The notes beneath the pieces were generated by a model. The model did not search any database. It was not told the origin of the DNA and was given only the letters and a program-made list of their open reading frames with translations. Below, in pieces: positions 1-57,790 of a stretch of 64,000 nt of DNA. Source of the stretch: an uncultured Peptococcaceae bacterium (GTDB lineage Bacteria; Bacillota; DSM-12270; Thermacetogeniales; Thermacetogeniaceae); assembly GCA_963768335.1 (NCBI GenBank), contig CAVYHR010000006.1, positions 1 to 64,000 on the forward strand, given 5' to 3'. The position numbers and the translations under genes are program-made. Position 1 is the first letter of the stretch. Each line of letters begins with the position of its first letter.

Positions 1-843
1 GCGAACTGGCGGCCTATCACGTCGGGCGCAAGGTCAGGGTGGAGGCCCCGGACCTGGAGGCCTTCAAGCAGAGATTGAAGGGGCTGGCTCAACAGGGGCC
101 CGAGAGCGTGCCGGCAACCGCCCTGCCCATAGCCGAACCGGTGATCAACCGCGGCGAGGATGCCATCCTCGATATTCTGGTCAGGCGCCTGGAAAGGGAG
201 TTGCCCGGGAACAACTGCCTGCGCGTCGATATGGGCAGCATCAACGGACTGCTGGCCCTTTACTACGGCAAGGCAAACGTGGCCACGGCGCACCTCTGGG
301 ACGGCGATTCCGACGAGTACAACCGCCCTACATCCGGCGCATCCTCCCCGGCCAAAAAATGGTGACCATCAACCTGGTTTTCCGTACTCAGGGCTTTTAT
401 GTGGCGGAAGGAAATCCCCTGGGGATTGGCAGGTGGACCTGACCTGGCCAGACCGGACATCCGGTTCGTCAACCGGGAGCCCGGCTCCGGAACCAGGGTG
501 CTGCTTGACGAACAGTTACGCAAGCTGGGTATCGACCACCGTCAGGTGCCTGGCTACGATAATGTGGAAACGACTCACCTGGCGGTCGCCAGTTGTGTGG
601 CCAAGGGCGCCGCCGACGTCGGGCTGGGCACGGAGTCGGTGGCCGGCCAGGTAAAGGGGCTGGACTTCGTTCCCCGGGCAGAAAGAGCGCTACGACCTGG
701 TGATGCGCAAGGAAGACCTGGACAGGCCTTATGGAAAGGTTATTATAAACCTGCTCCGGTCGACATCCTTCCGCAACGAGGTAAGCGGCATGGGCAGGTA
801 TGACCTCTCACAGATGGGGAAATTGATCGCCGAAGTGTATTAG
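1..843 (+). pseudogene. 5'-truncated PBP-like (periplasmic-binding-protein-like, MoeA/ModE-associated) substrate-binding domain gene; reading frame broken about 3 times
   Basis: Protein-like sequence continues across track ORFs 39..365 (frame 0), a frame-2 stretch at about 362..440, 399..803 (frame 0) and a final frame-1 stretch ending at TAG 841-843. The conserved stretch is RPDIRFVNREPGSGTRVLLDEQLRKLGI...ETTHLAVASCVAKGAADVGLGTESVA...GLDFVP | LAKERYDLVMRKEDLDRPYGKVI. The first shift sits at an A6 run (354-359). The ORF is open from base 1. Confidence 0.45.
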
Positions 844-1079
844 GAATGCTCCCGGTACTTTTTCTTCCAGGCATCGAAGTCCCACCCCTGCAAGAAAACC
901 TTGCCCGCCTTCAATCCGTTGTCGAACAGGGCTATGCTCTGCTCGGGGGTGATGTCGAAATCCACCGTGCCGATTATTGTCTTCTGATTGCCAACCTGGA
1001 CTGTGGTCGGTATGCAGATAGACCGTTCATGGTCCCCGGACGAGACTGAAATATGGTAGTTGTCATTGCCGCTGATCAT
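840..1079 (-). CDS. C-terminal continuation of the patatin-like ORF after an in-frame TAG (79-aa ORF from first Met; 99 codons open from the TAG)
   Basis: Same frame as ORF 1137..1937 (1937 and 1079 are both 2 mod 3). The only stop between them is TAG at 1137-1139. Translation right after it is FDPDPIHNIADYLESLLGTMISGNDNYHISVSSGDHERSI..., which is protein-like. The stop TAA at 840-842 overlaps the convergent upstream gene. Confidence 0.4.
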   Translation of the reverse strand: MISGNDNYHISVSSGDHERSICIPTTVQVGNQKTIIGTVDFDITPEQSIALFDNGLKAGKVFLQGWDFDAWKKKYREHS

Positions 1080-1136
1080 CGTGCCTAACAGAGACTCCAG
1101 GTAGTCGGCGATGTTGTGGATCGGGTCGGGGTCGAA

Positions 1137-1845
1137 CTACGGCAAAGTCCTGCCCGTAGTATCGACGGGTTTGAAACCGAAGGTCGGCCAGGGCGGATCG
1201 CTGGTGCCGTCGTCCAGGAGCCAGATCGGGTAGTTGCTCAGCACTCCGCCGTCAACGATATAATGTAGTTTCCCCCGGCTATCGGTCAACCTGACCGGCT
1301 CGAAAAACACCGGGATGCTGATACTCATCCGGACAGCGGCGGCAATGCTGAATTGATCGGGATCATACCCAAAATTCTTGAGGTCTCCAGGCAGGACGAG
1401 GAGTCTTTTGTCGGTCATGTCGGAGGCGATGGCCTGGAACTTGTACGTGTACTTTTCCTGCGTGGGGTTAGCGAACTTGATGTCCCCGAAAGTTGTCTTT
1501 CCCTTGGCGTCGAGCAGGGCACCCAGCCAATTTTCAAAAAATGTCCCCTTGTAAATGCCGTACCTGAAAACGATGCTGGCGATCTTGCCGGGAACGCTAA
1601 ATCTGTCCAGCCAGTTCTCATCCTCAAAGTCCTTGTAGTTCAACTTCTGCAATGCCTGCTCGATCTCCCCGGCCGTATAGCCCACCGCCAGCAGCGAGGC
1701 CACGATCGCTCCCGCCGAAGTTCCCGCCAGGTTGACGAACTGGTAACCGGCCTCTTCAATGGCGGCCACGGCCCCAACCAGGCCGATGCCCTTCACCCCG
1801 CCGCCCTCAAAAACCGCATCGCAATTCAACGCCATTTTTTCGGCA
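1137..1845 (-). CDS. patatin-like phospholipase
   Basis: MALNCDAVFEGGGVKGIGLVGAV... (oxyanion GGGxKG), GTSAG nucleophile elbow and a distal DGG(V) Asp motif. RBS AAAGGAG sits 9 nt before ATG at 1845. The track ORF extends to 1937, but that N-terminus has no RBS. Confidence 0.85.
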
Positions 1846-2233
1846 CTCCTTTCCGGCCCGTTGCTAATTCCAACTTTGCTTCGCTTAGCTTGAAATATTT
1901 CTATTCCACACTTAGCATTAACATGCGGGGGATGCACGGAGTAGCGTTCCTTTCGGGACGGTTCACAAGAGATCGGAGGTCATGAAGTTCAGACCGGCGC
2001 CCGCCTGCAGCCTGGCGGCGACCTGCTCCCGCAGGGGCTGGGCCGGCTCCTGCCGGCCCAGGTTCTTGAAGGCTACCGCCAGCATCAGCTTGATGCGGTT
2101 CAACTGGTTGACCTCGCTGGCGCCGGCCAGTCGTTACAATTCATGCTGCCATCCTTCACCGCCGGTCCACCGGCCCCGGCAACCCCCGGGAAGTTCATGT
2201 GCCGGAACCGGCCGTGCCTGGCGCCCACATCGG

Positions 2234-4985
2234 TCATCCGGTCCTTGTCCGGCTTGCAGTTCCGGCCCAGACATGGCAGATCGGTTTGCCAAGCTTTTTC
2301 GCCAGATCGACTATCTCCCCGGTGCCGCCCCGTCCCTGGGCTTTCCTGCCGTCCCAGACCGCCACCATCACGTCGCTGTGCTCCACAATGTAGCGCCCGG
2401 ACCTCAGATAGGCCTCGCCCCGGGTCGGCGCGGGGGGCATGACGATGGTCTCGATGGCGCGCTCCGCCAGCCAGTAGCGAAACTCCTGCCTCAGCTCGGC
2501 CTCGTCGTAGTCCAGGCGGTGCTCGTCAGTGGGGCCAAAGTCTTTGATGTAGTCATCCAGAGGCACCGGCAGCACCACGATCAACCGGGCCGCCTCGTTC
2601 TTGAGCAGGGCACGGGCCACCAGCCGGTCGGCCCCGATAGCCAGGGGGGAGAAGACCGTCAGGTAGTGTTCCGGGAATTGGGACTCGATAAAGGTCACCG
2701 CTCTGGCGACTCCTGCCTCCAGTTCGGCCATCCGTTCCGGGTCGAGCCAGACATGGCCGGTGATACCCACCCTGAGCATCTCCCGGTGGCCCAGCCTGGT
2801 GAGGGCATCGAACTCCCCGGCATCGACGTGCATCTCTAAAATGTGGTCCGGGGGCAGACTGGACAGGGCGAAACTCCGCCTCTCATCAAGGTTGCTCATC
2901 CTGACCAGGGTCTCCATGGAGCGGGCCTCATAACGATAGCGGTTAACCTTCAGGAAGGCATCCAGCACCCCCCGGTCCACCTGAAACCGGTCGCCCTTCT
3001 TGATGTGCGGGGCTGATATCTCCAGGCAGCGGTTCAAGAGAAACGCCCGCCGGATGGGGAACATCCGGTCCTCGACAGTGTTGGGATGACCGTTCACGCC
3101 CTTCACGTCGATGTAGGCCCGCAGCCTGCTGATGAAATCGGGTTTTTTGGCAGCCGCCTTCTCCCCGCCGGAGCCGGCGCAGAACTCCTTGAAGGAGTGT
3201 CCGGTCGCCCCGGTGAAGACGTAGATGCCGCCGCCCAGCGGGTGCCCGCTGCCATGGTCGTTGAACTCGCCGTCCTGCATGGGCGCCAGAAAATCCGCAG
3301 CCAGCCCAGCGGGATGCCCTCGCAGGGTGCGTCGAACTCGTCCCAGAAGACCAGGGGCATCTTTCCCCTCAGGCGCCGGTCCCTGATCTGGTGGAAGGCC
3401 TGGGCGAGTTCCCGGGGCGATGTAAACTGGGAGAGGTTGAAGGTCAGTTGGGCGTTTTCGGCAATCCCCAGACCCCTGGCAATCTCCTTGACAACGAAGG
3501 ACTTGCCGGCCCCAGGGGGCCCGAACACCGCCACGCAGAGCGGTGTTTGCAGGCGCTGCTGCTTTAAATAGTCCGCCATAGCGTTGTAGACGCTGCGCAC
3601 GCCCTCGATCTCGCGCCGGTCGGCGCTGCGCCAGTTACCGACCATTTCCACGGGGACGTCGGGCAGGGCCACCCCGGGCCCCTCCTCCACGATCATCCGG
3701 GCGTACTCGAAAACCGCGTCCATGGTCCTGGAACCCCTGGCAACGCTTGCTTCCGTAATTTGCGCACCCGCCCGGCCCCTGTTCTCCTTGACCGCCTCTT
3801 CAAGGATGGACCACCCCGCCCGAGGCGGCGCCGCACCGGGTGCTCCCTGGGGGCGGCGCCCGCCTTCACTACGGGCCAGACCCCTGACATCCTGAAAAAT
3901 CCCCAGGTCCCATATTTTATCGGTCCTCTTGTCACCCGTTCCCTCGTGATAAGCCTTCACCAACCGCTGGCAGGGAAACTGGAGGCGCTGGCAGTCTCCT
4001 GCCGCCACCACCTCGCAACCATCCAGGTAAAGCAGCCGGGCCAGGGCGATACCGTCCCGGGTCGCCCTGGACCAGTCAACGCCCGGTGGCCAGTTGACCC
4101 AGGCCGCGGCCAGAGCCCCCAGCACACAGGTATTGGCACCCGGCGCCTGCCTCGTAAGATGCCGGGCAAAGTCGCCCTCCTGGCCGGAGCGGTCAAAGAT
4201 CAGAGTGTCATGTTCCTGCCCTACGATCACCGCCCCGCTCGCCCCGACGGTGACGATCACCTGATGGAAGAGCAGGTTGTTCTGATCGTCGACAAAGGGG
4301 CCCCTCGGGCTGCAGACGGCAGCGATTATGGCCTCAAACAGCCTCTCCCAGGAAAGGGAAACCCCGACCCGTTGCGGGCAGGCCCGCAGGTCTCCGATAG
4401 AGGTCAGGATGGTGGTCCTGGCCGCCAGGTCGATGGCATGAAGCCTGGCCAGCAAGGGGTGCTCCCGGTCGCCGCCAAACCGGGCGAGCTGGAGGATGAT
4501 CTGCTCCGGCTTTCTGCCGCACCGCGCCCGGCGGGCGCCCGCTTCGGGCGCGGACCCGGCACCGCCTCCTCCGCATCCGGGCTAAGCCCGGCCTGAATGT
4601 CCGCTCGAGGCTGGCGCCTCGGCTGAAAGCCCGCCGACACACCGGGAATGCGGAGCACAGGTGGGCGCGGCACCCGCCGCTCTCCTAAAACCTCCGGCCA
4701 CCCCTCCGTGACACTGCGAAATCCCAGGCCGCTGTCGGCGATCACCAGCAGGTCCGGCAGGCCGGCAGGCCGGCCCTCGACCTCAGCCAGCTCCGGCGGG
4801 ATCATCTCTTTTAAAAACTGCAGGATCAGCGCCGACCCACCGGCCCGGGACATCAGGCGCGCCACTGCTGCCGGACGATCGGGCAGCCGGGGGTGGCTTT
4901 CGCCTCTGCTGTAATGATCCTCGCCCTGGATGGTCAGCCAGTCGACGGTGGGGTCGCCGCATACCTGCACCAGAAGTTTCGCCAT
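2234..4985 (-). CDS. large multidomain NTPase: degenerate ribokinase/PfkB-like domain + AAA+ ATPase + C-terminal LOG/SLOG-like Rossmann domain; split over three frames in this assembly
   Basis: The three track ORFs 4404..4985, 3103..4455 and 2234..3280 are colinear and each continues the protein-like sequence of the previous one. PfkB-like motifs: AGGSALILQFL and APGANTCVLGALAAAW (GAGD degenerated to GANT). Walker A CVAVFGPPGAGKSF, Walker B LVFWDEFD, sensor-1-like IYVFTGAT. LOG-like: LTVFSPLAIGADRL...LIVVLPVP and GRGGTGEIVDLAKKLGKPI (PGGxGTxEE-like). The shift near 3290 looks like GGG->GG. The other break coincides with repeat copy A. Confidence 0.6.
4563..4668. repeat. P1-type palindromic repeat, copy A, inside the NTPase coding region
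   Basis: CCTCCTCCGCATCCGGGCT-AAGCCCGGCCTGAATG...GAAAGCCCGCCGACACACCGGGAATGCGGAGCACAG. The outer arms CTCCGCAT(C)CGGG / CCCGGGAATGCGGAG are reverse complements. The terminal 35 nt matches copy B. Confidence 0.6.
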
Positions 4986-5197
4986 GCCGCCCTCCTGCCT
5001 TACGATCTGCTATTAGGCAACGCTCAACTTATTATGTGAAATAATCTCATCTTTCAAAAGGAGGCGGCAGACCGGACCGGGGTTTAAACCATACTTATTG
5101 CCCGGGGATGAGTTTGAGAGGTAATAATCAAGAAAAATGGTATAATACTGTAGTGAATAACCAGATTATCGCCTTGCCATCACCAGGAGGAATGCTT

Positions 5198-6397
5198 ATG
5201 AGAAAAATGCTCAAGATCCTGCCGGTCCTTCTGCTTTCCCTGGCCGTGGCTGTCGGTTGCGCCAAACACGCCCCACCGCCGCCGCAACCTCCTCCGCCGG
5301 CCCAGCCCGCCAAAGCCGACCCGGCCAAGACCAGCGGCGCCACCAACGCCTCCCTGTTCTTCCTCAACAACCAACTGGGATGGGTTGCAGTCAACCTGGA
5401 GACACAGCAGCCCCCGGCCAGCGTCATCCTGCATACCGGTGACGGCGGGCAGAACTGGGTGCAGTTGAACTCCCCGGGTCTGTCGGTCGTCCAGCAACTG
5501 GCCTTCCCTGATGCCCAGCACGGCTGGGCGCTGGTGTCAGCCGACGCCGGCAACAGCCAGACAAGCTGCGCCATCATGGCCACGGCCGACGGAGGAAAGA
5601 CCTGGACACAGCAGTGGTCAGAGGTGATTCAACAGGGTGGATACCCGTACCGGATGCAGTTCCTGGACGCCAGCAACGGCTTCGCCCTGATCGGCAACAC
5701 CTTTGTGGTCACGCTGGACGGCGGCGCCCACTGGGTGCAGCGCACCATGGTACAGGGCATGAGCGGTTTCAGTTTCAGTGACCGCCTGGCGGGTTGGGCG
5801 GTTGGGGCCAACTCCATCTGGCACACCACCGACGGAGGAGTGACCTGGCTCAGGCAGTGGACGATACCGGACAATATTAAAAGCGAGTTCCCCGACAGTG
5901 GAGGCATCATCATCTTTGTCTCCCCCAACGCCGGCTGGGCGCTGTTCCAGGGGGAAGGGTCCATGTTCAAGTCCTCCAAGCTGGTGCTGCATACGGATGA
6001 CGGCAGTAACTGGTCGGCTGCCAGCGCCTACCTCCCTCCCATCAACCAGACCGGCCTCCCACCTAACACAGCGCCCCACTATACCGTGGCGCGCTTCGTA
6101 CCGGTGAACGCCACCACCGCCTTGCTGGCGGCATCGCCTCCCACCGACTACCCGGTGCTGTACCGCACCACCGACAATGGTAGTGACTGGGAGACGCTCA
6201 GCGATGGGATGAGCGGCGCCTCCGGCCTGCCCGAGGGCACCTGGGGAGACCTCAGCTTTGCGGGCGGCAGCGAGGGCTGGGCGGCGGTAATTACCCAACC
6301 TACGTCCAAGTCAAGCAGCGGCACTCCTACCGGCAGCAACGTGGCCCTGCTGCACACCCTGGACGGCGGCAAGACCTGGGCCACCCAGTTCCCGTAA
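5198..6397 (+). CDS. BNR/Asp-box (Ycf48-like) beta-propeller lipoprotein
   Basis: RBS AGGAGG before ATG at 5198. Signal peptide MRKMLKILPVLLLSLAVAVGC with a lipobox, followed by a Pro-rich linker. Seven SxDxGxTW-type repeats (TGDGGQNW, ADGGKTW, LDGGAHW, TDGGVTW, TDDGSNW, TDNGSDW, LDGGKTW). Confidence 0.8.
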   Translation: MRKMLKILPVLLLSLAVAVGCAKHAPPPPQPPPPAQPAKADPAKTSGATNASLFFLNNQLGWVAVNLETQQPPASVILHTGDGGQNWVQLNSPGLSVVQQLAFPDAQHGWALVSADAGNSQTSCAIMATADGGKTWTQQWSEVIQQGGYPYRMQFLDASNGFALIGNTFVVTLDGGAHWVQRTMVQGMSGFSFSDRLAGWAVGANSIWHTTDGGVTWLRQWTIPDNIKSEFPDSGGIIIFVSPNAGWALFQGEGSMFKSSKLVLHTDDGSNWSAASAYLPPINQTGLPPNTAPHYTVARFVPVNATTALLAASPPTDYPVLYRTTDNGSDWETLSDGMSGASGLPEGTWGDLSFAGGSEGWAAVITQPTSKSSSGTPTGSNVALLHTLDGGKTWATQFP

Positions 6398-6559
6398 AGA
6401 TTGTCATGGGCATAGAACCACTGGGATCGTGCCCGCCGGAACGCTTTACCTTGGGTGCGACTTACGGCGGGAAATACATAAACCGGCGTGAAACAGCAAG
6501 AAGCCGCAGGCTGCATAAACCTGCGGCTTTTGTTTGCCGTTCTCTGTTAACCGTGAGGT

Positions 6560-8554
6560 TTATTTAGTATCCGGCGCCTGCTGCTGCCCCGGCAGTTGCA
6601 GGTTGCCCTTCAGCAACTTGGCCAGCACAGCGTTCACCAGGGCGCCCTGACTGTTTTCTCCCCCGTTAATCATGATCTCGGGTGTGATCTTGATTTGCTT
6701 CTCCGAGATCAATTTCATCAACTCGATACTAACGAGTCCTTCCGCTGTTACTGCTTGCTTGGTCAGTTCGTATGCCTGCGCCGTGTTCTTGCCGATCGAC
6801 AGAATTTTATCAGCCTCACCCTGGCCTTCAAGCCTGATTTTCTCGGCCTCGCCCTGGGCAATGGCGATGGTCTTTTGCTTGATCTGTTCTGCAACCTGCA
6901 CATCAATCTGCGCTGCCACCAGGGTTGCCTGCTTGTCAGCCTCGGCCCTGGTTTTTTCCATGGCGATACGCTTTTGTTCCGAATTCCTCTGCTCATCGAA
7001 CATTGACTGCCGCTGCAGGGCGAGCACCTTGTTGGTCTGGGTCTCCATCAGCTCCGGCGGCAGAACAATATTACTGATGAGCACCGATAATACCTCGACA
7101 TGGTACTTGCTCAGTTCGTTGACGGCACGCTTCAGTGCCTGATCCTGCTGCTCGTGGCGATCCTGCAGGAATTGCATCGCTGAAGCCGTGGATGCCTGAT
7201 TGCGGAATGATGAGTCGATCAGCGGGTGAATGACGTTGGTGATCAGGTTTTCTATGCTGCCAATACGACTCACGAGATAGGGCGATTGATCGGGCAGCAC
7301 CCTGATGACCACTTTCACGCCTACCTTAAGCGCAAAACCATCCTTGCTGTTCACGTTCAGCGAGTCGAACTTGGTATCCGCGGCATCATCCCAATCAATG
7401 GTGGTATTAGTGGTATTAATGATGATCGGCCTGTATGCCAAGAGGTTCAAATAAAAATTTCCCGGTCCGAGCACTGAACGCTGTATGCCCCGGTATCCTT
7501 CCGTAACTACATATTTTTCTGCATTAAAGTCGTCCGCTGCATCATCGTTCGCTTTGGGCTCCCCGGAAGACAACGGTATTGCCGGTTGTTTGCCGACGTT
7601 GGAGATAATCACCGCCACCTGACCCTGGTTGACAGTTAACGCATCAGATGTTTGCACTGAAAACATCAGGGGGTTTACATAAAATTTGCCTGGGGTGAGG
7701 ACATCTAATTGTGGGCCGCGCTGCCCACCGTTCATGAGAAACGCTGCGGCATTCTGGAACATATCGTGACCTTGAATGGTCTTGGCGATTAGCTCGTTTT
7801 CCGGCAGTTCTTCTCCATCATTTGCGGTGACAATGCCAACTTTGCCGGACGGAACATCGATAGCTGGAGTGATTTTCACATCGAACATCCGGAGATTTAT
7901 TCTGTACCGGCCCGGTCTCAAGATATCTAGTTGTGGCCCCTTCTGTCCGCCCTGCTCGAGGAAAGCCTCTCCGTCCTGGTAGTTGCTATGGCCAGGAACT
8001 GATTTAGCGTAGAGTCGCCCCGGATCCAGCGGTTGGCCGGCTGCTGCGTTCACGATGCCAATCGAGCCCGCAGGGATCGTTATCGCATCCATAACTGTGA
8101 TCTTGAAGAGATAGCTGTTGACTCTGTAGAGACCTGGCGGCAGTGTTTCTGTCTGGATGCCTTTCTGTCCCCCGTTTTTCAAGAAAGCCTCAGCATCCTG
8201 AAAGTGGTTATGACCGGTTACGACCCTGCCGAATATATCTCCCGGATCGAGGGGCCTCCCGTCTATCGATTCGATTATTCCCACCTGGTTTTCCCCGATC
8301 GCCACCAGTTCATCGATGCGGACGTTGAACAGGAACGGAAAAAAGAGATGAAGGCCCGGCCCCAAGATTCTTGCCTGAATTCCGATCTGCCCGGGCAGTG
8401 CGACGACCCTATCCGAAGGAAGCCTTGCTCCGAAAAGTTTTTGTTCTACTATCCCCACCTGTCGGCCGCCGATAATGACGATCATCCGTGCACTTGCGAG
8501 CAGTAATATGACAACAATCGCCACAATTACATAAAGAATCGTATCCATTGCCAT
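6560..8554 (-). CDS. flotillin-like SPFH/band-7 membrane protein (YqiK family) with N-terminal repeats
   Basis: N-terminal TM helix. Four ~80-aa repeats (GIVEQKLFG..., GIIESIDGRPLDPG..., GIVNAAAGQPLDPG..., GIVTANDGEELPE...). Then an SPFH core and a long Ala/Glu/Gln-rich coiled coil (EQKRIAMEKTRAEADKQATLVAAQIDVQVAEQ...). Confidence 0.85.
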   Translation of the reverse strand: MAMDTILYVIVAIVVILLLASARMIVIIGGRQVGIVEQKLFGARLPSDRVVALPGQIGIQARILGPGLHLFFPFLFNVRIDELVAIGENQVGIIESIDGRPLDPGDIFGRVVTGHNHFQDAEAFLKNGGQKGIQTETLPPGLYRVNSYLFKITVMDAITIPAGSIGIVNAAAGQPLDPGRLYAKSVPGHSNYQDGEAFLEQGGQKGPQLDILRPGRYRINLRMFDVKITPAIDVPSGKVGIVTANDGEELPENELIAKTIQGHDMFQNAAAFLMNGGQRGPQLDVLTPGKFYVNPLMFSVQTSDALTVNQGQVAVIISNVGKQPAIPLSSGEPKANDDAADDFNAEKYVVTEGYRGIQRSVLGPGNFYLNLLAYRPIIINTTNTTIDWDDAADTKFDSLNVNSKDGFALKVGVKVVIRVLPDQSPYLVSRIGSIENLITNVIHPLIDSSFRNQASTASAMQFLQDRHEQQDQALKRAVNELSKYHVEVLSVLISNIVLPPELMETQTNKVLALQRQSMFDEQRNSEQKRIAMEKTRAEADKQATLVAAQIDVQVAEQIKQKTIAIAQGEAEKIRLEGQGEADKILSIGKNTAQAYELTKQAVTAEGLVSIELMKLISEKQIKITPEIMINGGENSQGALVNAVLAKLLKGNLQLPGQQQAPDTK

Positions 8555-8951
8555 TCGTTCCTCCTCTTCATGCTTGACTGTTTAAGCCGCATACTGATTC
8601 TGCTTGAATAACGCCTGGCGCTATTTTTGTTTTCCAACTTCCGATCCAAGATGCCGATCCGCTCGCCCCCGACGATCACCACCATATGCGAGTTCAGGGA
8701 TGACCAGGAGCACCAGCGCCAACTCTATCCAAGATCAGCCTCCCTTCAATTTTTCTCCTTGCTCCCCACCTATCATTATCATAATTAGGCCCTTTTGGCT
8801 ATGCGCCGCAGGCAAGAAATAAGCCGCCTATCCTACAGCAAAACGCCGGAAAGCGACATTTAACATGCGTGTAATTGATTACCTGTTATTTTGGTGGTCA
8901 GATGCCAGAAGGCGGATGTCAGCACATTTTTCTCCTGCTTTTGGACATCTT

Positions 8952-9095
8952 GCCTCCTCCGCATTCAGGCCTTCGGCCTGGCCTGAACGCCGGCTCAAGG
9001 CTCCGCCTTGGCTCCTGTGCTCCGCATTCTTCAGGCTGGGCTGAAAGCCCAGATGCGGAGGAAAGCCCGCCGGCACACCGGGAATGCGGAGTACA
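8952..9095. repeat. P1-type palindromic repeat, copy B (two hairpin units plus the shared terminal module)
   Basis: GCCTCCTCCGCATTCAGGCC..., then TGTGCTCCGCATTCTTCAGGCTGGGCTGAAAGCCCAGATGCGGAGG, then AAAGCCCGCCGGCACACCGGGAATGCGGAGTACAT. It lies right after the HK stop codon, in its 3' UTR. Confidence 0.6.
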
Positions 9096-9103
9096 TGACC
9101 TCT

Positions 9104-10438
9104 TTACAGGGCCGGAAGGTTGATCCTGAACGTGCTGCCATGTCCGGGAGCGCTGTCGACTTCGATCCAGCCGCCATGCGCCCTGATGATGCCATAAGCC
9201 ACCGGCAAGCCCAGCCCGGTGCCCTGGCCCGGCCGCTTGGTGGTGTAAAAAGGCTCGAAGATGCGGGACCGGTTGGCCTCGTCTATGCCGGCGCCGGTGT
9301 CGGACACCGAGAGGCAAACAAATCTGCCGGGAACAACGCCCGCCTGTCCGGGACGGCCCGCGGCCACGTTTTCAGTCTTGATGGTGAGGGCGCCGCCATT
9401 CGGCATGGCATCCCGGGCATTCAGCACCAGGTTGGCGATCGCCTGGTCGAGGGCGGCGGTATCGGCGTTCACCTTCCATAGGTGGGGGCATGTCTCCAGC
9501 CTGATGTCAATGTTCCCGCCCAGCCACGCCCGGTCCACTGACGCTTTTGCGGGCGCATCCCGGCGCGGGCGCGGCAGCATCTTACCAATCTCATCCACTC
9601 TCTGATTCAGGTCTGTGGGAACCTTGAAGAGGGGTAACCGGCAACTGAACAGCAGCATCTGCCTGGTAAGATTGGCGCAGATCAGGGCGCTGTTCCTGAT
9701 CCTCGATAATGCCCGGTGCAGGGGATTATCCATGGAAAGCCCGGGCAGAAAGAGGTCGGTGCAGGCGCAGATCACCGTCAACTGGTTGTTCAACTCGTGG
9801 GCCATGCCTCCGGCCAGGCGGCCCACCGCCTCCATCTTCCCTGCCTGCAACCACCCGGCCTGAGACTGGAGTTCGTCTTCTCCCTGCCCGGGCGGGTTGA
9901 GCCTCTCCTCCTCTTTCCTGTGTCCGGAGATGTCACGAAGCGCCACCAGCACCGCCGGCTCCCCCTGGCAGGCGATCGTCCTGGCCTCGATCTCCACCCG
10001 TATCTCCTGCCCGGTCTTGGAAATGATCTTGACGGAAAAGGTCGACACCGACACTGCTCCACGACGGAGCGCCTCATACCCCTCTTTGACGATCTCCCGA
10101 AAATCCGGGGCTATGAGCCTCCACAGATCCACTTTTTTGAGTTCCCTCGCCGTATACCCGGCGAAGTCATGGGAGCACGGGTTGACCGGGCGCAGGCGGC
10201 TTCCCTGGATAATATAAATAAAAGCTGGCGACACTTCCGCCAGCAGCCTGTAATCGAGTAAGTCTTTCCTGAGGCCGGCCTCCCGTTTCCGGTGTTCCAG
10301 AATCTCCCTTTCCAATGCCTGGTTGACAGTTACCAGTTCCTGCAGGTGTTCCCTCAACTGCTCGGGGGAGTACTCACTGCCGAAACCGGTTTCTTCATGC
10401 ACCTGCCGGGGCATTGCATCCGGGACTCGCTCATCCAC
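9104..10438 (-). CDS. cytoplasmic PAS-domain sensor histidine kinase (HisKA + HATPase_c), no adjacent response regulator
   Basis: H-box MAHELNNQLTVI. N-box LVLNARDAM. G-boxes DTGAGI and GQGTGLGL. PAS-like region upstream. No TM segment. Confidence 0.85.
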   Translation of the reverse strand: MDERVPDAMPRQVHEETGFGSEYSPEQLREHLQELVTVNQALEREILEHRKREAGLRKDLLDYRLLAEVSPAFIYIIQGSRLRPVNPCSHDFAGYTARELKKVDLWRLIAPDFREIVKEGYEALRRGAVSVSTFSVKIISKTGQEIRVEIEARTIACQGEPAVLVALRDISGHRKEEERLNPPGQGEDELQSQAGWLQAGKMEAVGRLAGGMAHELNNQLTVICACTDLFLPGLSMDNPLHRALSRIRNSALICANLTRQMLLFSCRLPLFKVPTDLNQRVDEIGKMLPRPRRDAPAKASVDRAWLGGNIDIRLETCPHLWKVNADTAALDQAIANLVLNARDAMPNGGALTIKTENVAAGRPGQAGVVPGRFVCLSVSDTGAGIDEANRSRIFEPFYTTKRPGQGTGLGLPVAYGIIRAHGGWIEVDSAPGHGSTFRINLPAL

Positions 10439-10840
10439 CCTGTAAAGTCTCGATGGGCGTCTGTACGGAATAAATCCCCATTTCTCGACCTCCTTGCCGG
10501 AAATAATCGAGCCGTACCAACTATGCGTTTGTCTATTAGGCTATTTCGCCATAATAGGAAAAACTCCTGCATGTTTTCCTGATAAATTCTATATTCTCAC
10601 ATTCTTACATTTCAATTATAGCAGCCGTACATCTGTTTGTCAAATACCCTTTTCACCTTCCGGCGACTGTCCGTTCATTCTCCGGCCAAGCCGATGGATT
10701 TCCTGGGCAATACAATTGCCTATCAAAAAGATATTTCATATAATTGAACGAGTGGATTGAGGTGATCAAACTCTTTCCTGTCAGATACGCGCAACCGCGC
10801 CCAGGGGACGCCCGCCTGGGAGAGAAACGGAGGGAGAACA

Positions 10841-12472
10841 TTGTCCAAGCTGACTTTCTTGGGGGGAGCCGGCACTGTTACCGGTTCCTGTTTTCTGCTG
10901 GAGACCGGGAAGCTGAAGCTGCTTGTGGACTGCGGCATGTTCCAGGGCAACCGGGAGTTGCGCACGCGCAACTACCGCAACCTGGAGGTCCCGGTCCAAT
11001 CTATCGACTACATCCTGCTGACCCACGCCCACATCGACCACTCGGGGTTGATCCCCCGCCTGTTCAAGCAGGGCTTCCGTGGCAAGGTGCTGGCCACCAA
11101 AGCCACTATCGACCTCTGCGGGATCATGCTGCCAGACAGCGGCCACATCCAGGAGGTGGAGGCGGAGTGGGAGACCCGGAAAGCCAGGCGCCGCGGCGAA
11201 AAACACCTGGACCCGCTCTACACTGCCCAGGATGCCGAGAACTGCCTGCAATCCTTTACCGGAGTCTCCTACGGCCAGGAGGTGGCCCTGGATGATCAGG
11301 TGCGGGTGCGCTACCTGGATGCGGGGCACATCCTCGGCTCCGCCATCATCGAGGTCTGGATCAGGGAGGACGGCCAGGAGATCAAGACCGTCTTCAGCGG
11401 CGACTTGGGCAACAAGGGCACACCCATTGTCAGGGACCCCGCCTGGGTGGCGGAGGCGGACTACCTGCTGCTGGAATCCACCTACGGAGACCGCTTCCAC
11501 GAACCGGTGGCCAACGAGGCCCGGCGGCTTCAGGAGATCATCCTGGACACCGTCAAGCGAGGGGGCAACGTGATCATCCCCTCTTTCGCCGTCGGCCGCA
11601 CCCAGGAGATCCTCTTCTTCCTCGGAGGCATGTTCAAACACGGCGACCTGCCGCCGGTCCCGGTCTACATCGACAGCCCGCTGGCCGTCTCGGCCACGGA
11701 GATCTTTACCCGCAACCCGGACTGCTACGATGACGAGGTCAGGGCCAGCCTGAGCAGCGGCGACCCCTTCCACTTCCCCAACCTGACCTTCGTGCGTGAT
11801 GTCAAGGATTCCATCGCCCTCAACAACAATGAACGCCAGCGCAAGGTGATCATCTCCGCCAGCGGGATGTGCGACGCCGGCCGGATCAAGCACCACCTCA
11901 AGCACAACCTCTGGCGCCAGGATGCGTCGGTGGTCTTCGTCGGCTTCCAGGCCGAAGGAACCCTCGGCCGCCGGATCCTGGACGGCGAGAAAAAGGTCCG
12001 CGTCCTGGGGGAGCCAATCAATGTGGCGGCCAGGATCTATTCCCTGCAGGGCTTCTCCGCTCACGCCGATCAGAACGGGCTCCTGGACTGGGTCTCGCAC
12101 CTGGCCGGCAAACCCGGGCGCCTGTTCATCGTCCACGGTGAGGCGGCAGCCTCCGGCGCTCTCAGCAACCTGGTGGAACAGCGTTTCGGCATCTCCACGG
12201 TGGTGCCACGGGCCGGCGAGCAGTACCTGCTCACTCCCCGCGGCCTGGAACTGGCCAAGGCGCCCCTGCCCAGCGTGCATCCGGCCGGCCTGGACGCCAG
12301 GCAGCAGTTGCTGCTGGAGATCTTCCGGCTGGAGAAAGCGCTGGTTGAGGCCAAGGAAGACCTGCTACTGATGGAAAATGGGGATCCTGAAGCTGACATC
12401 TTGAAGAAGATGGTGCCGGAGCTGGGCGAGAAGATCGACGCCCTGCTGCAGGCCATCCCGAAAAGGGGATAA
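10841..12472 (+). CDS. MBL-fold metallo-hydrolase, beta-CASP family (RNase J/CPSF-like)
   Basis: TTG start with RBS GGAGGGAG. FLGGAGTVTGSC, LLTHAHIDHSG (HxHxDH), downstream D/H motifs. C-terminal ~100-aa coiled-coil extension. Confidence 0.8.
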   Translation: MSKLTFLGGAGTVTGSCFLLETGKLKLLVDCGMFQGNRELRTRNYRNLEVPVQSIDYILLTHAHIDHSGLIPRLFKQGFRGKVLATKATIDLCGIMLPDSGHIQEVEAEWETRKARRRGEKHLDPLYTAQDAENCLQSFTGVSYGQEVALDDQVRVRYLDAGHILGSAIIEVWIREDGQEIKTVFSGDLGNKGTPIVRDPAWVAEADYLLLESTYGDRFHEPVANEARRLQEIILDTVKRGGNVIIPSFAVGRTQEILFFLGGMFKHGDLPPVPVYIDSPLAVSATEIFTRNPDCYDDEVRASLSSGDPFHFPNLTFVRDVKDSIALNNNERQRKVIISASGMCDAGRIKHHLKHNLWRQDASVVFVGFQAEGTLGRRILDGEKKVRVLGEPINVAARIYSLQGFSAHADQNGLLDWVSHLAGKPGRLFIVHGEAAASGALSNLVEQRFGISTVVPRAGEQYLLTPRGLELAKAPLPSVHPAGLDARQQLLLEIFRLEKALVEAKEDLLLMENGDPEADILKKMVPELGEKIDALLQAIPKRG

Positions 12473-12655
12473 GTTTAAGAGATTTCCCACGATGAGTAAC
12501 CCCCTTCGGCAGCCTCTTCAGCGGCAGTCTCGCCCACTTCTGGGGGGCGCCGGCCACCATCGCCACCGGGGCGGCTATCGGCCTGCTGTCCCTGATCACC
12601 ATGATCATCCGGGAACGCCGGCAGTGGTCGCCAAAGCCCGGCGACAGCCCGCGTT

Positions 12656-14164
12656 CTACCTCTGGGAGATCCACTCCCGGCAGGCGGCGGCAAATCGGGC
12701 GGCAGCCCGGGGGTTGGCGGCGAAATGGAAGTGAAAGTAGGAGGCCAGCAGGCTGCCGTCGGCATAGCCGTCGTTGCCGGTGCGACCGTCCCCCTTGCGG
12801 AAGGTGAACGCCCAAGGGAAGGGTTCCCTGGATGGAATGAACGAGGAGTAGTGAAACTCGTGGCCGCGCAGCGCATCCCCCTTCTGGCAGAGGATATTCC
12901 GGCCCTTGGCCTCGGCGGTGACGTAGCCCATGCCCACCAGGCGCCCGGCCATGCGGCAGCGGCCCGGCGCCAGGCCGACCATCGGGTGGTCGCGGCCGTC
13001 CAGGTCGCCGAGCGATTCGCAGAGGTACATGAAGCCCCCACACTCGGCGTAGATCGGCAGACCGGCAGCGTGTGCCCGGCGCAGGCTGTCCTTCATGCCC
13101 TCATTCCCGGCCAGTTCCCGGGCGAACACCTCGGGAAACCCGCCGCCGATCAGGACACCGGCGACGCCATCGGGAAGCGAGCGATCCTGCAGCGGACTGA
13201 AGGATACCAGTTCGATGCCGTGCCAGGATAACAGATCCAGCCCGTCCCGGTAATAGAAGTTGAAGGCAGCGTCCCAGGCCAGGGCCACCTTCACCAGGCG
13301 CTCACTCCCCACCGCAAACGCTACTGATGCGCCGGGCTGCTGGTTTTTATGACCGGTTCCCGCCGCTGTACTGGTACGGCGGCTGACCATCCGTTTGCTA
13401 GACAGCAAACGCTGGCGCCCGCGGTAGGCCCGAAAGATTGACGGCGCCGACTCTGCCACCGCCAGGATCGCTTCCAGGTCCACCTGCCGGACGACCTCCT
13501 GCGACAACTCCCTGAGCAGTGGGTCGGACTCCCGTTGCTCCGGCACCGGCACCAGCCCCAGGTGCCTTTCCGTCAGACGGGGCAGGCTCCCGTCCCGGAC
13601 CGCTCCCAGGACCGGTATCCCCGCCTCACAGAAACCCGCCTGCAGCATCTCCAGATGCCGTTCCCCGGTGTAGCGGTTGAGGATCACCCCGGCCAGCCGC
13701 AGGTCCGGGTCAAAGCTGCGGCAGCCCAAAAACTCCACCACGGCGCTGCGGGCCTGGCTGCGCACGTCCAGTACCAGCACCACCGGGCAGCCCAGGAGCT
13801 TGGCCACCTGGGCGCTGCTTGCCTGCTCTCCCTGGCCGCGCAGGCCGTCGAACAGGCCCATCACACCCTCGATCACTGCAATATCGGCGTCAGCCGCAGC
13901 CCTGCAGAAATATGACCGCACCTGGCCGCAGGAAAGCATCCAGGTATCCAGGTTGCGCGACCAGCGCCCCGTGACCGCGGTGTGGAAACTGGGATCGATA
14001 AAGTCCGGCCCCACCTTGAAGCCCTGCACCCGGCAACCCCGGCTGGCCAGCGCCCCCATCAGGCCGGTGGCGATACTGGTCTTGCCGGAACTGCTCCGGA
14101 CCGCGGCGATCATCACCCGCGGCGCCCGGCTCCCTCTAACGGTATTTCCAGCATCATCGCTCAT
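12656..14164 (-). CDS. cbiA: cobyrinate a,c-diamide synthase
   Basis: VMIAAVRSSSGKTSIATGLMGAL... P-loop N-domain. C-terminal GATase region (ECGGFMYL). Confidence 0.85.
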   Translation of the reverse strand: MSDDAGNTVRGSRAPRVMIAAVRSSSGKTSIATGLMGALASRGCRVQGFKVGPDFIDPSFHTAVTGRWSRNLDTWMLSCGQVRSYFCRAAADADIAVIEGVMGLFDGLRGQGEQASSAQVAKLLGCPVVLVLDVRSQARSAVVEFLGCRSFDPDLRLAGVILNRYTGERHLEMLQAGFCEAGIPVLGAVRDGSLPRLTERHLGLVPVPEQRESDPLLRELSQEVVRQVDLEAILAVAESAPSIFRAYRGRQRLLSSKRMVSRRTSTAAGTGHKNQQPGASVAFAVGSERLVKVALAWDAAFNFYYRDGLDLLSWHGIELVSFSPLQDRSLPDGVAGVLIGGGFPEVFARELAGNEGMKDSLRRAHAAGLPIYAECGGFMYLCESLGDLDGRDHPMVGLAPGRCRMAGRLVGMGYVTAEAKGRNILCQKGDALRGHEFHYSSFIPSREPFPWAFTFRKGDGRTGNDGYADGSLLASYFHFHFAANPRAAARFAAACREWISQR

Positions 14165-15754: not shown

Positions 15755-16921
15755 TTACAGTCCGGGCCGGCCTGCGGCCAGCGCCAGCAAGGCATTGACG
15801 ACGGACACCGCCACGGTGCTGCCGCCCTGGTTCCCGATCATGGTGATGTAGGGCACCTCCTGGCCGGCCAGCCGGGCCTTGGCCTCGGCGGCGCCCACAA
15901 ACCCCACCGGCGTGCCCACGATCAGAGCCGGCCGGAAACCGGCCTCGCTCTGCCTGAGCACCTCGGCCAGGGCGGTGGGGGCATTGCCGATCACCGCCAC
16001 ACCGCCGGTTAAAAGCTGGCGAAACGCCCGTACCCCCATCATCGACCGGGTCAGGCCCTGCTCCTTGGCGAGGGCGGTGGTGCGCGGGTGATGGGTCATA
16101 CAGACCACGCGGCCGCCATACCCCCGCAGGGCGGCCCTGTTGATCCCCATCTTCACCATCCGCACGTCGGTGAACAGCGTCGCTCCCGCCCTAATGGCAG
16201 CCAGGCCGGCCTCCACGGCCGCGGGATGAAAGCGCAGCAGGTGGGCGGCGTCCGGATTGCCCATGGCGTGCACCACCCGCCGCACGATCTCCCCCTCCCG
16301 GGGCGGGAACTGCTCCAGGTAATGCAAACCCAGGGATGACTCGATCAGGCTCCGGCTGCGGCTGGTGATATGCTCGGGGTCCGTGAGCCCGTCCTGCTCC
16401 GCTCCCTCCGCGCCCAAAGGGCACCCGGCCGGGTCCAGTGCCACCTTGATTGCGAGCGTAGCGAGCCGCGCCCGGCCCACTGGAACCGGCGCCGACGCTT
16501 GCGGGCGCGGCGCCCGGCACGGAGGACCTGGCGCGGCGCCGTCTTCCGGCATCCCGGCAACCGCGGCATGCACCCGCTCCACGACGATCTCCGCCAGGCG
16601 CGGGTCGGGCCCGAAGCCCTCGGTCAGGATCAGGCGCACCCGCTCCCCGTACCGGGCCTCGAGTTCACCCAGGGCGGCGGGGATATCCTCCTTCAGGTGT
16701 ACGCCCGGAAAGAGCAGGGCCGGGACGACGACAATCTCCGTCACTCCTTCATTGACAAAGCGCTCCACCGTATCCGCCAGGTTCGGCCGTTCGAACTGGA
16801 AGTATGCCGGCAACACCCGCATCCCCAGTCCGGCCTGAACCAGTTCGGCCAGCGTCACCAGCCCGAGGTTGGCCGTACTGCGCCTGCTCCCATGGCCGAG
16901 CAGCAATATTCCTCTTTTCAT
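15755..16921 (-). CDS. fusion of CbiX (sirohydrochlorin cobaltochelatase, small form) and CbiC/CobH (precorrin-8X methylmutase)
   Basis: N-term: ILLLGHGSRRS...EIVVVPALLFPGVHL (CbiX). C-term: VRMVKMGINRAAL...ALIVGTPVGFVGAAEAK...ITMIGNQGGSTVAV (CbiC). A low-complexity linker separates them. Confidence 0.75.
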   Translation of the reverse strand: MKRGILLLGHGSRRSTANLGLVTLAELVQAGLGMRVLPAYFQFERPNLADTVERFVNEGVTEIVVVPALLFPGVHLKEDIPAALGELEARYGERVRLILTEGFGPDPRLAEIVVERVHAAVAGMPEDGAAPGPPCRAPRPQASAPVPVGRARLATLAIKVALDPAGCPLGAEGAEQDGLTDPEHITSRSRSLIESSLGLHYLEQFPPREGEIVRRVVHAMGNPDAAHLLRFHPAAVEAGLAAIRAGATLFTDVRMVKMGINRAALRGYGGRVVCMTHHPRTTALAKEQGLTRSMMGVRAFRQLLTGGVAVIGNAPTALAEVLRQSEAGFRPALIVGTPVGFVGAAEAKARLAGQEVPYITMIGNQGGSTVAVSVVNALLALAAGRPGL

Positions 16922-27026: not shown

Positions 27027-27226
27027 TTACTCTTCCTCCTCTATATCTCTCCTATCGAATGAGTTTGGCGCCACTGATAACGACAAGCTTCTCAACCTTG
27101 AAAACAGACGCAACTGTGTCTCCAGGAAAAAACTAACCCCAGCCATGAAGGCTGAGGTTCGTAAACACGTGCTTACTGAATCCCACCCCCTATCGTTCGT
27201 AGGGTAACACGGCGCGACTGGAACAG

Positions 27227-27385
27227 GCAGGTCTCCTGGCTCGGGTTCTTCGCCTGACCTGCCCTTCCCTGAAACGCTGTGCGCTCAAGTGGTAATGCAG
27301 TAGGCTCCCCCTCACAGTGGCGGGACCGCACCTTTCACCCAGCGCTCTGCTTCAAACCAGGTCCCCCTCATTGCATTATGTCAAC
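27227..27385 (-). ncRNA. cobalamin (AdoCbl) riboswitch in the cbiMN leader
   Basis: Minus-strand reading: ...GGTGAAAGGTGCGGTCCCGCCACTGTGAGGGGGAGC... (B12 box GCCACTG at plus 27311-27329), then ...CAGGGAAGGGCAGG...CCCGAGCCAGGAGACCTGCC. TTGACA lies about 20 nt upstream (plus 27379-27384). About 200 nt before the cbiM ATG. Confidence 0.75.
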
Positions 27386-27651
27386 TACTGGCGCGCGGCC
27401 GGGTGACACTGACAGCAACGCGGCGTGGAGCCTGAATCGCTGGGCTTCGGACTTCCCTTTTCAGCCCGTATTTAACGGGCCACCTGTTCCCCTTACGATG
27501 AAATTATCAAAGAACTTTTTTCAGTCCCCTTTTGCACAGAGACTACCACAGTCTGACAACGCCAACAACCACTGCCAATCCATAAAGGATTCGCCGTCAA
27601 GTTACATTCTCCTTCATGAAAAACAAAAACCGATCTTTTTTTTCTCATTCC

Positions 27652-30597: not shown

Positions 30598-30603
30598 ACT
30601 TCC

Positions 30604-30783
30604 ACAGATGACTACCCGCTCTAATGCCCCCGCTTCCTCCGCATCCGGGCTTACAGCCCGGCCTGAAGAATGCGGAGTACATCCGAAGCGGTGGAATAAG
30701 AGCGGCTACATCACTGTATTAACTGGCTCTAAGCGTCAGTGGGGGAAAACAACCCCCCACTGAAGCCAAGACCCAGTTGAAAG
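30604..30783. repeat. P2-type ~135-nt multi-hairpin repeat (copy C) carrying a nested P1 hairpin (30641..30684)
   Basis: Shares CACAGATGACTACCCGCTCTAATGCCCCCGCTTCCTCC...GAAGCGGTGGAATAAGAGCGGCTACATCACTGTATTAACTGGCTCTAAGC-GTCAGTGGGGG...CCCCCCACTGAAGCCAAGACCCAGTTGAA with copy D. Carries an extra insert GCATCCGGGCTTACAGCCCGGCCTGAAGAATGCGGAGTACATCC. Confidence 0.65.
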
Positions 30784-37969: not shown

Positions 37970-38165
37970 TCAAAACTGTCTTGTTTTGTAAATTCCAATT
38001 CAACCCCCTCCTGCTCCCTTTTGGCCACTCCTTTTCTCTTGTACCGGCTTCAACAAGCAATCTGCAAAACCATGGTTCGACATTTTTCAAGCAAAATATT
38101 TTTCCAGGTTGCCTTTTGCCAGTTGACGTAATATACTGATTCTGACAACTGAATATAACATTCCT

Positions 38166-38320
38166 TCGTTAGGTGAGGCTTCTGCGTAGACAGACGCCAC
38201 TGCCCGGAAACGTCGAAAGACGCCAAATGGGTCAACAGGTATTACCGGCTTAAGGTTCTACCTAATGTGGCTGAGGGACAATCTCTAAGCTGCGCACGTG
38301 TCAAAACTCGACGAGTGGGG
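38166..38320 (+). ncRNA. M-box (ykoK-type) Mg2+ riboswitch
   Basis: TTCGTTAGGTGAGGCTTCTGCGTAGACAGACGCCACTGCCCGGAAACGTCGAAAGACGCCAAATGGGTCAACAG... Near-identical to the B. subtilis mgtE leader core (TTCGTTAGGTGAGGCT...GACGCTAATGGGTCAACAG). Confidence 0.85.
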
Positions 38321-38347
38321 GGATGAGGTATTGGCATTTATGAGACT

Positions 38348-44286: not shown

Positions 44287-44354
44287 TGTGTTATCTCACC
44301 GTCCAGGATTATCCGTTCCGGGTGGCTCTAGAAAGGTTGCAGCCTCTCATCGCC

Positions 44355-44490
44355 ACAGATGACTACCCGCTCTAATGCCCCCGCTTCCTCCGAAGCGGTG
44401 GGATAAGAGCGGCTACGTCACTGTATTAACTGGCTCTAAGCTTCAGTGGGGGCAAGCAATCCCCCACTTAAGCCAAGACCCAGTTGAATC
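44355..44490. repeat. P2-type ~135-nt multi-hairpin repeat (copy D), flanked by diverged ~45-bp direct repeats
   Basis: About 88% identical to copy C but without the nested P1 insert. Flanks 44305-44354 and 44497-44545 both read ATTATCCG(T/C)TCCGGGTGG...GGTTGCAGC. The right copy encodes the FdhD C-terminus. Confidence 0.65.
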
Positions 44491-44491
44491 A

Positions 44492-57737: not shown

Positions 57738-57790
57738 CTCCTCCGCATCCGGGCTACGCCCGGTCCGAAGAATGCGGAGTACATCGCTAC
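57716..57790. repeat. P1-type palindromic repeat copy E with adjacent GTGAGATGTGGGATCTCAC palindrome
   Basis: GGTGAGATGTGGGATCTCACCTCCTCCGCATCCGGGCTACGCCCGGTCCGAAGAATGCGGAGTACATCGC. In the yqfC-yqfD spacer. Confidence 0.6.

Follow-up and report, generated by a model that had tools for sequence, protein, structure and literature searches.

A palindromic repeat cluster probably inserted in frame into an intact NTPase gene of an uncultured Peptococcaceae bacterium

How can a palindromic repeat lie within a coding sequence without ending it, and is the gene that carries it still a working one? These questions are raised by a 64,000-nt stretch of DNA from an uncultured Peptococcaceae bacterium (CAVYHR010000006.1, positions 1 to 64,000, analyzed whole and hereafter called the window), in which an earlier reading of the bare sequence had placed such a repeat inside the frame of a nucleoside triphosphatase (NTPase) gene. 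That observation holds: open reading frame (ORF) 4404..4985 on the minus strand, encoding 193 residues, passes through 4563–4668 without a stop and yields the peptide ...PEVLGERRVPRPPVLRIPGVSAGFQPRRQPRADIQAGLSPDAEEAV... as originally quoted. The explanation that best accounts for the locus as a whole, and that we hold with good though not full confidence, is that a cluster of two selfish repeats sits in frame in a linker of an intact NTPase, the frameshifts that seem to break the gene being artefacts of assembly. The features on which the argument turns are listed here; L and P numbers denote the loci and proteins compared with the window.

2150–4985, minus strand: host NTPase gene, about 940–950 residues, from the frame map and homologues; the 3′ end coordinate is approximate.
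4522–4673, translated on the minus strand: composite insert without counterpart in orthologues, from a DNA alignment with L003, L004 and L005 and a protein alignment with 10 orthologues.
4569–4661, plus strand: 93-nt long-form element of the CTCCGCAT...ATGCGGAG(C/T)ACA(GG) family, from its similarity to 8953–9095, paired termini, fold, and empty and filled sites.
4522–4568, plus strand: larger part of a GC-rich palindromic unit (fold −22.5 kcal/mol, z −2.9).
4662–4673, plus strand: the 12 nt that complete the GC-rich unit, TGGGCGCGGCAC, bringing it to 60 nt with 4522–4568 once a missing base is restored.

Against the DNA of L003, L004 and L005, the window species carries 153 additional nucleotides between GGAGAGCGGCGG and TGCGGCAGAAAGCCGGAGCAG, and all 10 aligned orthologues have just a short variable linker between the GWPExL and PxxII motifs, where the window species has 51 more residues. 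The proposal that the codons are an insert is thereby borne out, and its size has to be revised: instead of 105 nt or 35 codons, the orthologues delimit 153 nt or 51 codons, a composite of two repeat families. The insert measures 152 nt in the window and 153 nt (51 codons) in sister assemblies, with boundaries that can rotate by up to 4 nt, GCGG being repeated at the junctions. Its translation, VPRPPVLRIPGVSAGFQPRRQPRADIQAGLSPDAEEAVPGPRPQAGARRARCG, is a Pro/Arg/Gly-rich stretch of 51 residues, and it occupies the identical site in three contigs, each assembled independently from a different European Nucleotide Archive (ENA) sample. The insert length is a multiple of three and the host frame is free of stops; since a given frame of a shuffled 152-nt insert (77% GC) is open with a probability of 0.55, the read-through by itself does not exceed chance. 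The repeated occurrence of in-frame copies inside verified genes, to which we return below, does.

The element unit, as defined from its other copies and from empty sites, is CTCCGCAT...ATGCGGAG(T/C)ACA, followed in one subtype by GG. The copy at 4569–4661 has an outer stem of 8 bp, a hairpin CCGGGCT-AAG-CCCGG and two more internal hairpins. In plus orientation, the segment 4522–4568 holds the hairpin GCGCCCGCTT(G)CGGGCGC and ends with ...GCACCGCCTC directly 5′ of the element; a relative of this segment lies inside another ORF (L020 7533–7575). Removal of the element leaves ...CACCGCCTC^TGGGCGCGGCACCCG (at greater length ...GGCACCGCCTC^TGGGCGCGGCACCCGCC), a sequence that fits both the GC-unit motif CCCTC^TGGGCGCGGCACCCGG and the insertion point in L059 and L063. 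The core of this unit, GGG(T/C)GCCC-TCT-GGGCGCG, was found in at least 22 copies in the sampled DNA. We thus read the insert as 60 nt of GC-rich unit flanking a 93-nt element on both sides, each length being a multiple of three. The unit and the element may have been acquired one after the other or jointly as a composite, and the junction GGATGCGG(A/T)GGAGGCGGTGC, which recurs in an insert in the prolyl-tRNA synthetase (ProS) gene of another genome, could reflect either a shared target preference or a composite moving as one piece. When the whole insert is folded, the outer stem closes all of it, with z only −1.4 to −1.6 in this GC-rich context; the short forms of the element are clearly structured (−15 to −16 kcal/mol, z −4.7 to −5.5). 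Pairing in the inner hairpin is kept by compensatory changes (4 pairs, 19 cells), a level that 0 of 500 shuffles reached, while the invariance of the outer stem in the same covariation alignment is an artefact of the search pattern, which required that stem. Rfam scans of 4480–4720 and 44300–44560 at E ≤ 1 returned nothing.

The host gene belongs to a well-populated family: 357 homologues were retrieved with the repaired protein as query, and full-length orthologues are 930–960 residues long and 50–70% identical to it. Its Pfam matches (AAA and nSTAND_NTPase5) are weak. An AlphaFold2 (AF2) model of the orthologue P0002, with a predicted local distance difference test score (pLDDT) of 81, is made up of three parts, N-terminally a ribokinase-like domain, then a P-loop ATPase domain of the AAA+ type, and C-terminally an alpha/beta domain; Foldseek matched the first to myo-inositol kinase, LacC and ribokinase (template-modelling score about 0.5, target-normalised) and the second to p97 and Clp. 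The Walker A (GPPGAGKS) and Walker B (LVFWDEFD) motifs are intact in the host protein, for which PADLOC gave no defence-system match. At L003, L004 and L005 synteny is conserved: a BNR protein is encoded upstream, and Band_7 and patatin genes lie close by. Over several kb the window is 90–95% identical at the nucleotide level to Thermacetogeniaceae SPRUCE 237, and hence derives from a close relative of that metagenome-assembled genome (MAG).

In the window, the gene is spread across three frames (ORFs 4404..4985, 3103..4455 and 2234..3280, all on the minus strand). Two contigs of the same species from other ENA samples, L001 and L002 (98.6–98.7% identity), both with names in the style of long-read assemblers, place the breaks as follows.

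4544–4545: one-base deletion, window only; plus strand GCTT^C against GCTTGC in the sisters (three-way alignment of window, L001 and L002).
3294–3295: one-base deletion, window only; turns GWLRYFLAPMQDG into a frameshift (three-way alignment; P0001 and all orthologues read GWLRYFLAPMQDGEF).
2263–2264: one-base deletion, window only, near the C-terminus (three-way alignment; P0001 and orthologues continue WAGN(C/Y)KPD...).

The deletion at 4544/4545, which falls within the hairpin GCGCCCG(C)AAGCGGGCGC, accounts for the apparent frameshift between ORF 4404..4985 and ORF 3103..4455. It is the separate indel that had been suspected about 40 nt downstream of the repeat: a single base, missing from the window only, and P0007, the protein called on L001, runs from the N-terminus through the element to ...RKPEQIILQLARFGG in one frame. 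The sisters have indels of their own, i.e., two extra bases near 4491–4501 in L002 and a run of indels farther downstream in the host gene in L001. Overall, each of the three assemblies has private single-base indels at differing positions, none is common to them, and their majority consensus is a single intact ORF of 951 codons. Near the C-terminus, at about 2176, the minority assembly looks correct when judged from orthologues, which is why the exact 3′ end of the gene is approximate. Gap openings between the window and its sisters number 27 in 8.2 kb (1–8167, L001) and 48 in 14.2 kb (1–14135, L002); at about 3.3 gap openings and 9.4 mismatches per kb, or one gap opening per 2.8 mismatches, the pattern is typical of long-read consensus error rather than of the evolution of coding DNA, and marks the window as an error-prone long-read assembly. 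On this comparison, all three frame breaks in the host gene are best read as assembly artefacts and the true gene as intact. For annotation, this would turn an apparent three-piece NTPase pseudogene into an intact gene, and at about 3 indels per kb many other ORFs of the window are likely to be falsely frameshifted.

We then considered in-frame copies elsewhere, in a census of 723 kb (the window plus 83 loci) that held 97 element intervals, or about 93 distinct sites after sister assemblies were discounted. Ten stop-to-stop ORFs ran through an element and extended 60 codons or more beyond it to either side, and six of them, besides the NTPase, proved on translation and Pfam scanning to be real genes with Pfam domains on both sides. 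With the NTPase included, 7 of the roughly 93 distinct sites (~7%) are thus in frame inside real genes. The six further genes that the search for other in-frame copies yielded are these.

L066: CheA, element between Hpt domains.
L053: ProS, element between the catalytic core and the editing domain.
L025: PurH, element between the IMP cyclohydrolase and AICAR transformylase parts.
L037: SpoIID, element inside the SpoIID domain.
L063: FNR-like reductase, element between the FAD and NAD domains.
L007 1400–1640, minus strand: RsmD–CoaD read-through fusion, element between the two genes.

ProS is an essential gene. Compared with solved homologues, the inserts amount to about 46–50 residues in ProS and about 79 in PurH. 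Accession prefixes place the six loci in the Stordalen and SPRUCE MAG sets, which we take to be short-read (Illumina) assemblies; if they are, the open frames inside these genes are independent of long-read error.

Two related loci can be described alongside. The rsmD–coaD gap of SPRUCE 237 is filled by a long form and a nested short form without any stop, giving a continuous ORF of 428 codons. The window also contains a second in-frame repeat insert, at about 16390–16490 (core 16409–16426) in ORF 15755..16921 on the minus strand, a CbiX–CbiC fusion whose inter-domain linker has about 30 more residues than the L003 orthologue (SAPVPVGRARLATLAIKVALDPAGCPLGAE); within this insert lies a GC-rich unit whose translation, GCPLGA, is also found in an L020 ORF.

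Several points weigh against an in-frame selfish cluster in an intact gene. In the window species, about 60 near-invariant residues of the N-terminal domain have been deleted in frame (at about 4760–4790, after AEVEG); in the orthologue model these form a helix and a long beta-hairpin (residues 76–122), which, by analogy with ribokinase-family kinases, would correspond to the lid subdomain. The faster-evolving N-terminal domain may be losing its function, in which case tolerance of the insert would be a mark of decay and not of compatibility, and the reading of the NTPase gene as intact is drawn from the consensus of three assemblies. In the AF2 model of P0007, insert residues 104–154 have a pLDDT below 50 and no secondary structure while the flanking strands and helices exceed 85, a contrast that is expected wherever the alignment is gapped, so that the model shows consistency only. 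The regular expressions of the census demand near-perfect termini, and stop-to-stop ORFs stand in it in place of gene calls. No transposase partner was identified, and no genome-wide transposase search was made. Finally, a Joint Genome Institute (JGI) metagenome scan for the junction between NTPase and element gave 0 matches, and a second JGI scan, aimed at sequences closely related to the NTPase N-terminus, gave pattern matches of which none was confirmed, with no empty or intermediate allele; as no empty or half-filled close relative was found, we can only infer the order of the two insertions, or a single composite arrival.

The most serious rival reading builds on some of these points: the NTPase would be a decaying pseudogene, the repeat would lie in dead DNA, and its open frame would mean nothing. 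It can draw on the split of the host gene into three frames in the window, on the loss of the conserved N-terminal residues, and on the non-synonymous over synonymous substitution rates (dN/dS), which in rough Nei–Gojobori branch estimates reach 0.4–0.7 for the N-terminal domain on the window branch; moreover, chance would leave a frame open through a 77% GC insert in 55% of cases. We nevertheless consider decay improbable. The frameshifts are unshared among the three assemblies, whose consensus is the intact 951-codon ORF, and indels occur at about 3.3 per kb over the whole overlap, as is typical of long-read error. Both the insert and the lid deletion preserve the frame, Walker A and B are intact, and on the same rough Nei–Gojobori estimates the AAA+ and C-terminal parts have a window-branch dN/dS of 0.17–0.34, the same as among orthologues (whole gene, 0.33–0.39). 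The same repeats, furthermore, stand in frame in ProS and PurH of related genomes. The NTPase gene thus appears to be functional, with AAA+ and C-terminal domains that, judging from substitution rates, are under purifying selection, and a relaxed N-terminal constraint may be why the deletion and the insert were both tolerated. The insertion point in the P0002 model is the coil between a helix and the strand 171–176, and the insert is predicted to be a floppy, disordered loop within a variable loop of the N-terminal domain. As to the deletion itself, its junction falls within a GGCCGGCCTGCCGGCCTGCCGG repeat and so points to slippage or microhomology.

The inserted peptide probably has no function of its own. 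Across genes, four of the six frames of the element are translated, in both orientations: the PVLRIP...SPDAEE frame is found in the NTPase and CheA, SSASGLTARPERMRST in SpoIID, PPHPGLQPGLKECGAQ in PurH and CTPHSSGQAEGLDAEE in the FNR-like reductase. Copies of the family have on average 4.38 open frames, against 3.79 ± 1.12 in shuffles, and stops are not depleted; the lack of depletion and the use of several frames together imply that the elements are not built to encode anything. That they evolved to be translatable was considered separately and ruled out, the open frames not being above shuffles and no frame being preferred. A second rival reading, in which the inserted peptide was co-opted and kept as a useful flexible linker or interaction motif, could appeal to the frame common to the NTPase and CheA and to the presence of the insert in 3 of 3 assemblies of the species, and we regard it as very improbable: other genes translate it in different frames and in reverse orientation, the family shows no depletion of stop codons, the peptide is of low complexity and predicted to be disordered, and the inner hairpin is conserved as nucleotide pairing, not as peptide. 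That the 35–51 codons are native sequence resembling a repeat, or an assembly chimera, has the open frame in its favor and nothing more, and is scarcely credible given that the insert is absent from 10 of 10 orthologues and three syntenic loci, has the same termini and internal hairpins as intergenic copies, and is found at one site in three contigs that were assembled independently from separate ENA samples.

The family to which the NTPase element belongs is well represented in the window, where ATGCGGAG occurs 10 times against 3.4 expected (shuffle maximum, 7), all 10 occurrences being the paired inverted ends of five copies. Copies outside the NTPase gene are as follows.

8953–9095, plus strand: intergenic long-form copy, beginning some 10 nt past the stop codon of ORF 9104..10438 (minus strand).
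9016–9063: short-form copy nested in 8953–9095, inverted.
30634–30681, plus strand: short-form copy of about 45 nt, lodged in the loop of the first hairpin of a structured repeat of ~140 nt.
57737–57783, plus strand: short-form intergenic copy.

A role for the GGAGG end of the element as ribosome-binding site of a gene at 8948 (minus strand) was considered and rejected, the ATG there opening just 9 codons. The empty site that corresponds to 30634–30681 is the paralogous 140-nt repeat at 44353–44488. This ~140-nt repeat (CCACAGATGACTACCCGCTCTAATGCCCCCGCTTC-loop-GAAGCGGTGGGATAAGAGCGGCTAC...AACTGG..CAGTGGGGG-loop-CCCCCACTG..CCAGTT; in the window at 30602–30781 and 44353–44488) was found in 63 copies, in loci L006–L083 and the window, about 20 of them empty, i.e., without the short element. 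It often begins directly after a stop codon (e.g., L020 7677) and matches nothing in Rfam at E ≤ 1; the short element lands more often in the loop of its first hairpin than anywhere else.

The 723-kb sample contains at least 94 short-form copies, 47 of them distinct, and the ends (TC)CTCCGCAT and ATGCGGAG(T/C)ACA are present in all 47. Among species-representative GTDB genomes, the short-form pattern matched at least 78 stretches, nearly all in four peat MAGs: Thermacetogeniaceae bacterium SPRUCE 237, Peptococcaceae bacterium bog_1190, Peptococcaceae bacterium palsa_1188 and MFD01231.bin.2.34. The element and the 140-nt repeat are also carried by L008 and L020 (JBEKCL01, Dehalococcoidia bacterium SPRUCE 159); because these loci share the clade's 140-nt repeat as well, their Dehalococcoidia label probably reflects mis-binning rather than transfer. 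Variants of the element include an outer-stem subfamily in which GCCCGTATCC...GGGAAAACGGGCACACAGG replaces CTCCGCAT...ATGCGGAG around the same internal hairpins (L042 7275–7370, L020 7716–7765), and tandem head-to-tail arrays of 42–43-nt units (...GGAGCACAGG|CGCATCCGGGC...; L004 1–130, L041 2220–2350, L032 336–420, L014 ~1625–1720), which look as if new copies had been inserted after TC within the left arm of a resident copy. A diverged relative (CCTCCTCTGCATCCGGGTTAGCGCCCGG...) lies at L003 9864–9930, just upstream of the NTPase start, in a genome 68% identical to the window, so that the family predates the split between L003 and the window species. Other features of the window are ordinary: an Rfam scan at gathering thresholds found just an M-box (Mg2+) riboswitch (38158–38326, plus strand, 142.8 bits) and a cobalamin riboswitch (27209–27502, minus strand, 83.5 bits), both away from the repeats studied here, and a scan for tRNA and tmRNA genes across the window found none.

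How such elements move can be approached from their insertion sites. TC stands immediately 5′ of CTCCGCAT in every listed copy and in filled sites. Empty sites read TTCTC^TGAA and TTC^TCCGAA in the first hairpin loop of the 140-nt repeat, CTTTC^AG in a terminator-like hairpin loop, and CCCTC^TGGGCGCG (CCCTC^TGGG) in the loop of the GC-rich unit. Paralogous sites both empty and filled, together with nested and tandem copies, are signs of mobility. There is no target-site duplication of fixed length: a TCCG repeat is present at one class of filled sites and absent at others and from most flanks. A search for a parent insertion sequence (IS), i.e., for matching ends 0.2–4 kb apart enclosing an ORF, in the 723 kb of 8-kb slices around short forms, found none above noise.

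Given these patterns, we propose that the repeats are non-autonomous selfish DNA that would have multiplied across the genomes of a peat clade of Thermacetogeniaceae/Peptococcaceae, landing mostly in intergenic hairpin loops, 3′ of TC and without target duplication. Copies inside genes would persist only where the frame was kept and a linker was hit, disruptive insertions being removed by selection, and the inserted peptide would have no function of its own. Our best guess for the mover would be a transposase of the IS200/IS605 or RAYT (REP-associated tyrosine transposase) type that acts on single strands and is directed by hairpins. A bolder version is possible and clearly more tentative: the CTCCGCAT element, the GC unit and the 140-nt repeat may form an undescribed mobile system resembling repetitive extragenic palindromic (REP) sequences, in which a hairpin-directed transposase inserts copies into loops 3′ of TC, GC units serve as landing pads, and nested clusters of 50–80 codons result in ProS and PurH. 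Such a system would be a Bacillota counterpart of the Rickettsia palindromic elements (RPEs), with a different mechanism.

The likeness to RPEs had been drawn at the outset, together with the supposition that nothing of the kind was described for Firmicutes. A literature search, outside of which subscription journals lay, indeed found no such elements there, and the analogy describes the behavior inside genes well. RPEs are palindromic repeats found in frame in genes (Ogata et al. 2000, 2002, as reviewed in PMC10969869 and PMC3733652). Both families are multi-copy palindromic repeats, of ~100–150 bp for RPEs and here with long forms of 93–143 nt plus a 45-nt short form; in both, some copies lie in frame in unrelated, apparently functional housekeeping genes and add peptide where the fold tolerates it, and both are regarded as selfish DNA. 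The host here is a free-living, GC-rich peat Bacillota whereas that of RPEs is an obligate intracellular alphaproteobacterium; a 45-nt short form exists here, with units nested in each other and in the GC-rich unit; four of six frames in both orientations are used here instead of the one conserved peptide per RPE family; and ~7% of sites are in genes, against nearly half for RPE-1. With RPEs compared by description, membership in that group is implausible on taxonomy and GC content.

REPs (GTAG- and CGTC-tagged) also occur inside ORFs in Proteobacteria, including those of tRNA synthetases (Di Nocera et al. 2013, PMC3733652), and the text of that survey mentions neither Firmicutes nor Clostridia. 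Like the present elements, REPs are short imperfect hairpins of high copy number, mostly just downstream of genes, whose units or clusters may lie wholly inside ORFs and encode up to tens of residues, and whose hairpin is conserved through compensatory changes. Unlike REPs, the elements described here carry no GTAG or CGTC tag, with ends CTCCGCAT... and ...(T/C)ACA(GG) instead; their short form is 45 nt long against 20–40 nt; and no RAYT partner was identified, no search having been aimed at RAYT genes. [quoted passage not shown] They, too, are small non-autonomous repeats able to form translational fusions with host ORFs, but their terminal inverted repeats span ~15–30 bp, compared with just 8 bp here (the CTCCGCAT/ATGCGGAG stem), and the present family has neither a consistent target-site duplication nor a parent IS in the 8-kb slices sampled.

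The mode of insertion seems most like that of single-strand Y1-transposase systems. Palindrome-associated elements derived from IS200/IS605 move by single-strand Y1 transposition in a hairpin-dependent manner; the elements studied here likewise insert directly 3′ of a fixed short sequence (TC) without duplication, depend on hairpins and prefer sites that can be extruded as hairpin loops. Their visible target is, however, just 2 nt and weakly specific, and a single closing stem spans the whole element in place of separate left and right subterminal hairpins.

Overall, the phenomenon is already known from RPEs and from REPs in ORFs, while this family and its host lineage are new. The concept is unchanged; what is worth noting is the recurrence in essential genes and the nested architecture of three families, which, with several empty and filled sites at hand, makes the rules of insertion tractable. 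Gene callers and domain annotators will mishandle genes of this clade that hold 15–80 extra low-complexity, repeat-derived codons. Taken together with RPEs and REPs, these repeats extend in-frame palindromic selfish DNA in housekeeping genes to free-living, GC-rich, uncultured peat Bacillota.

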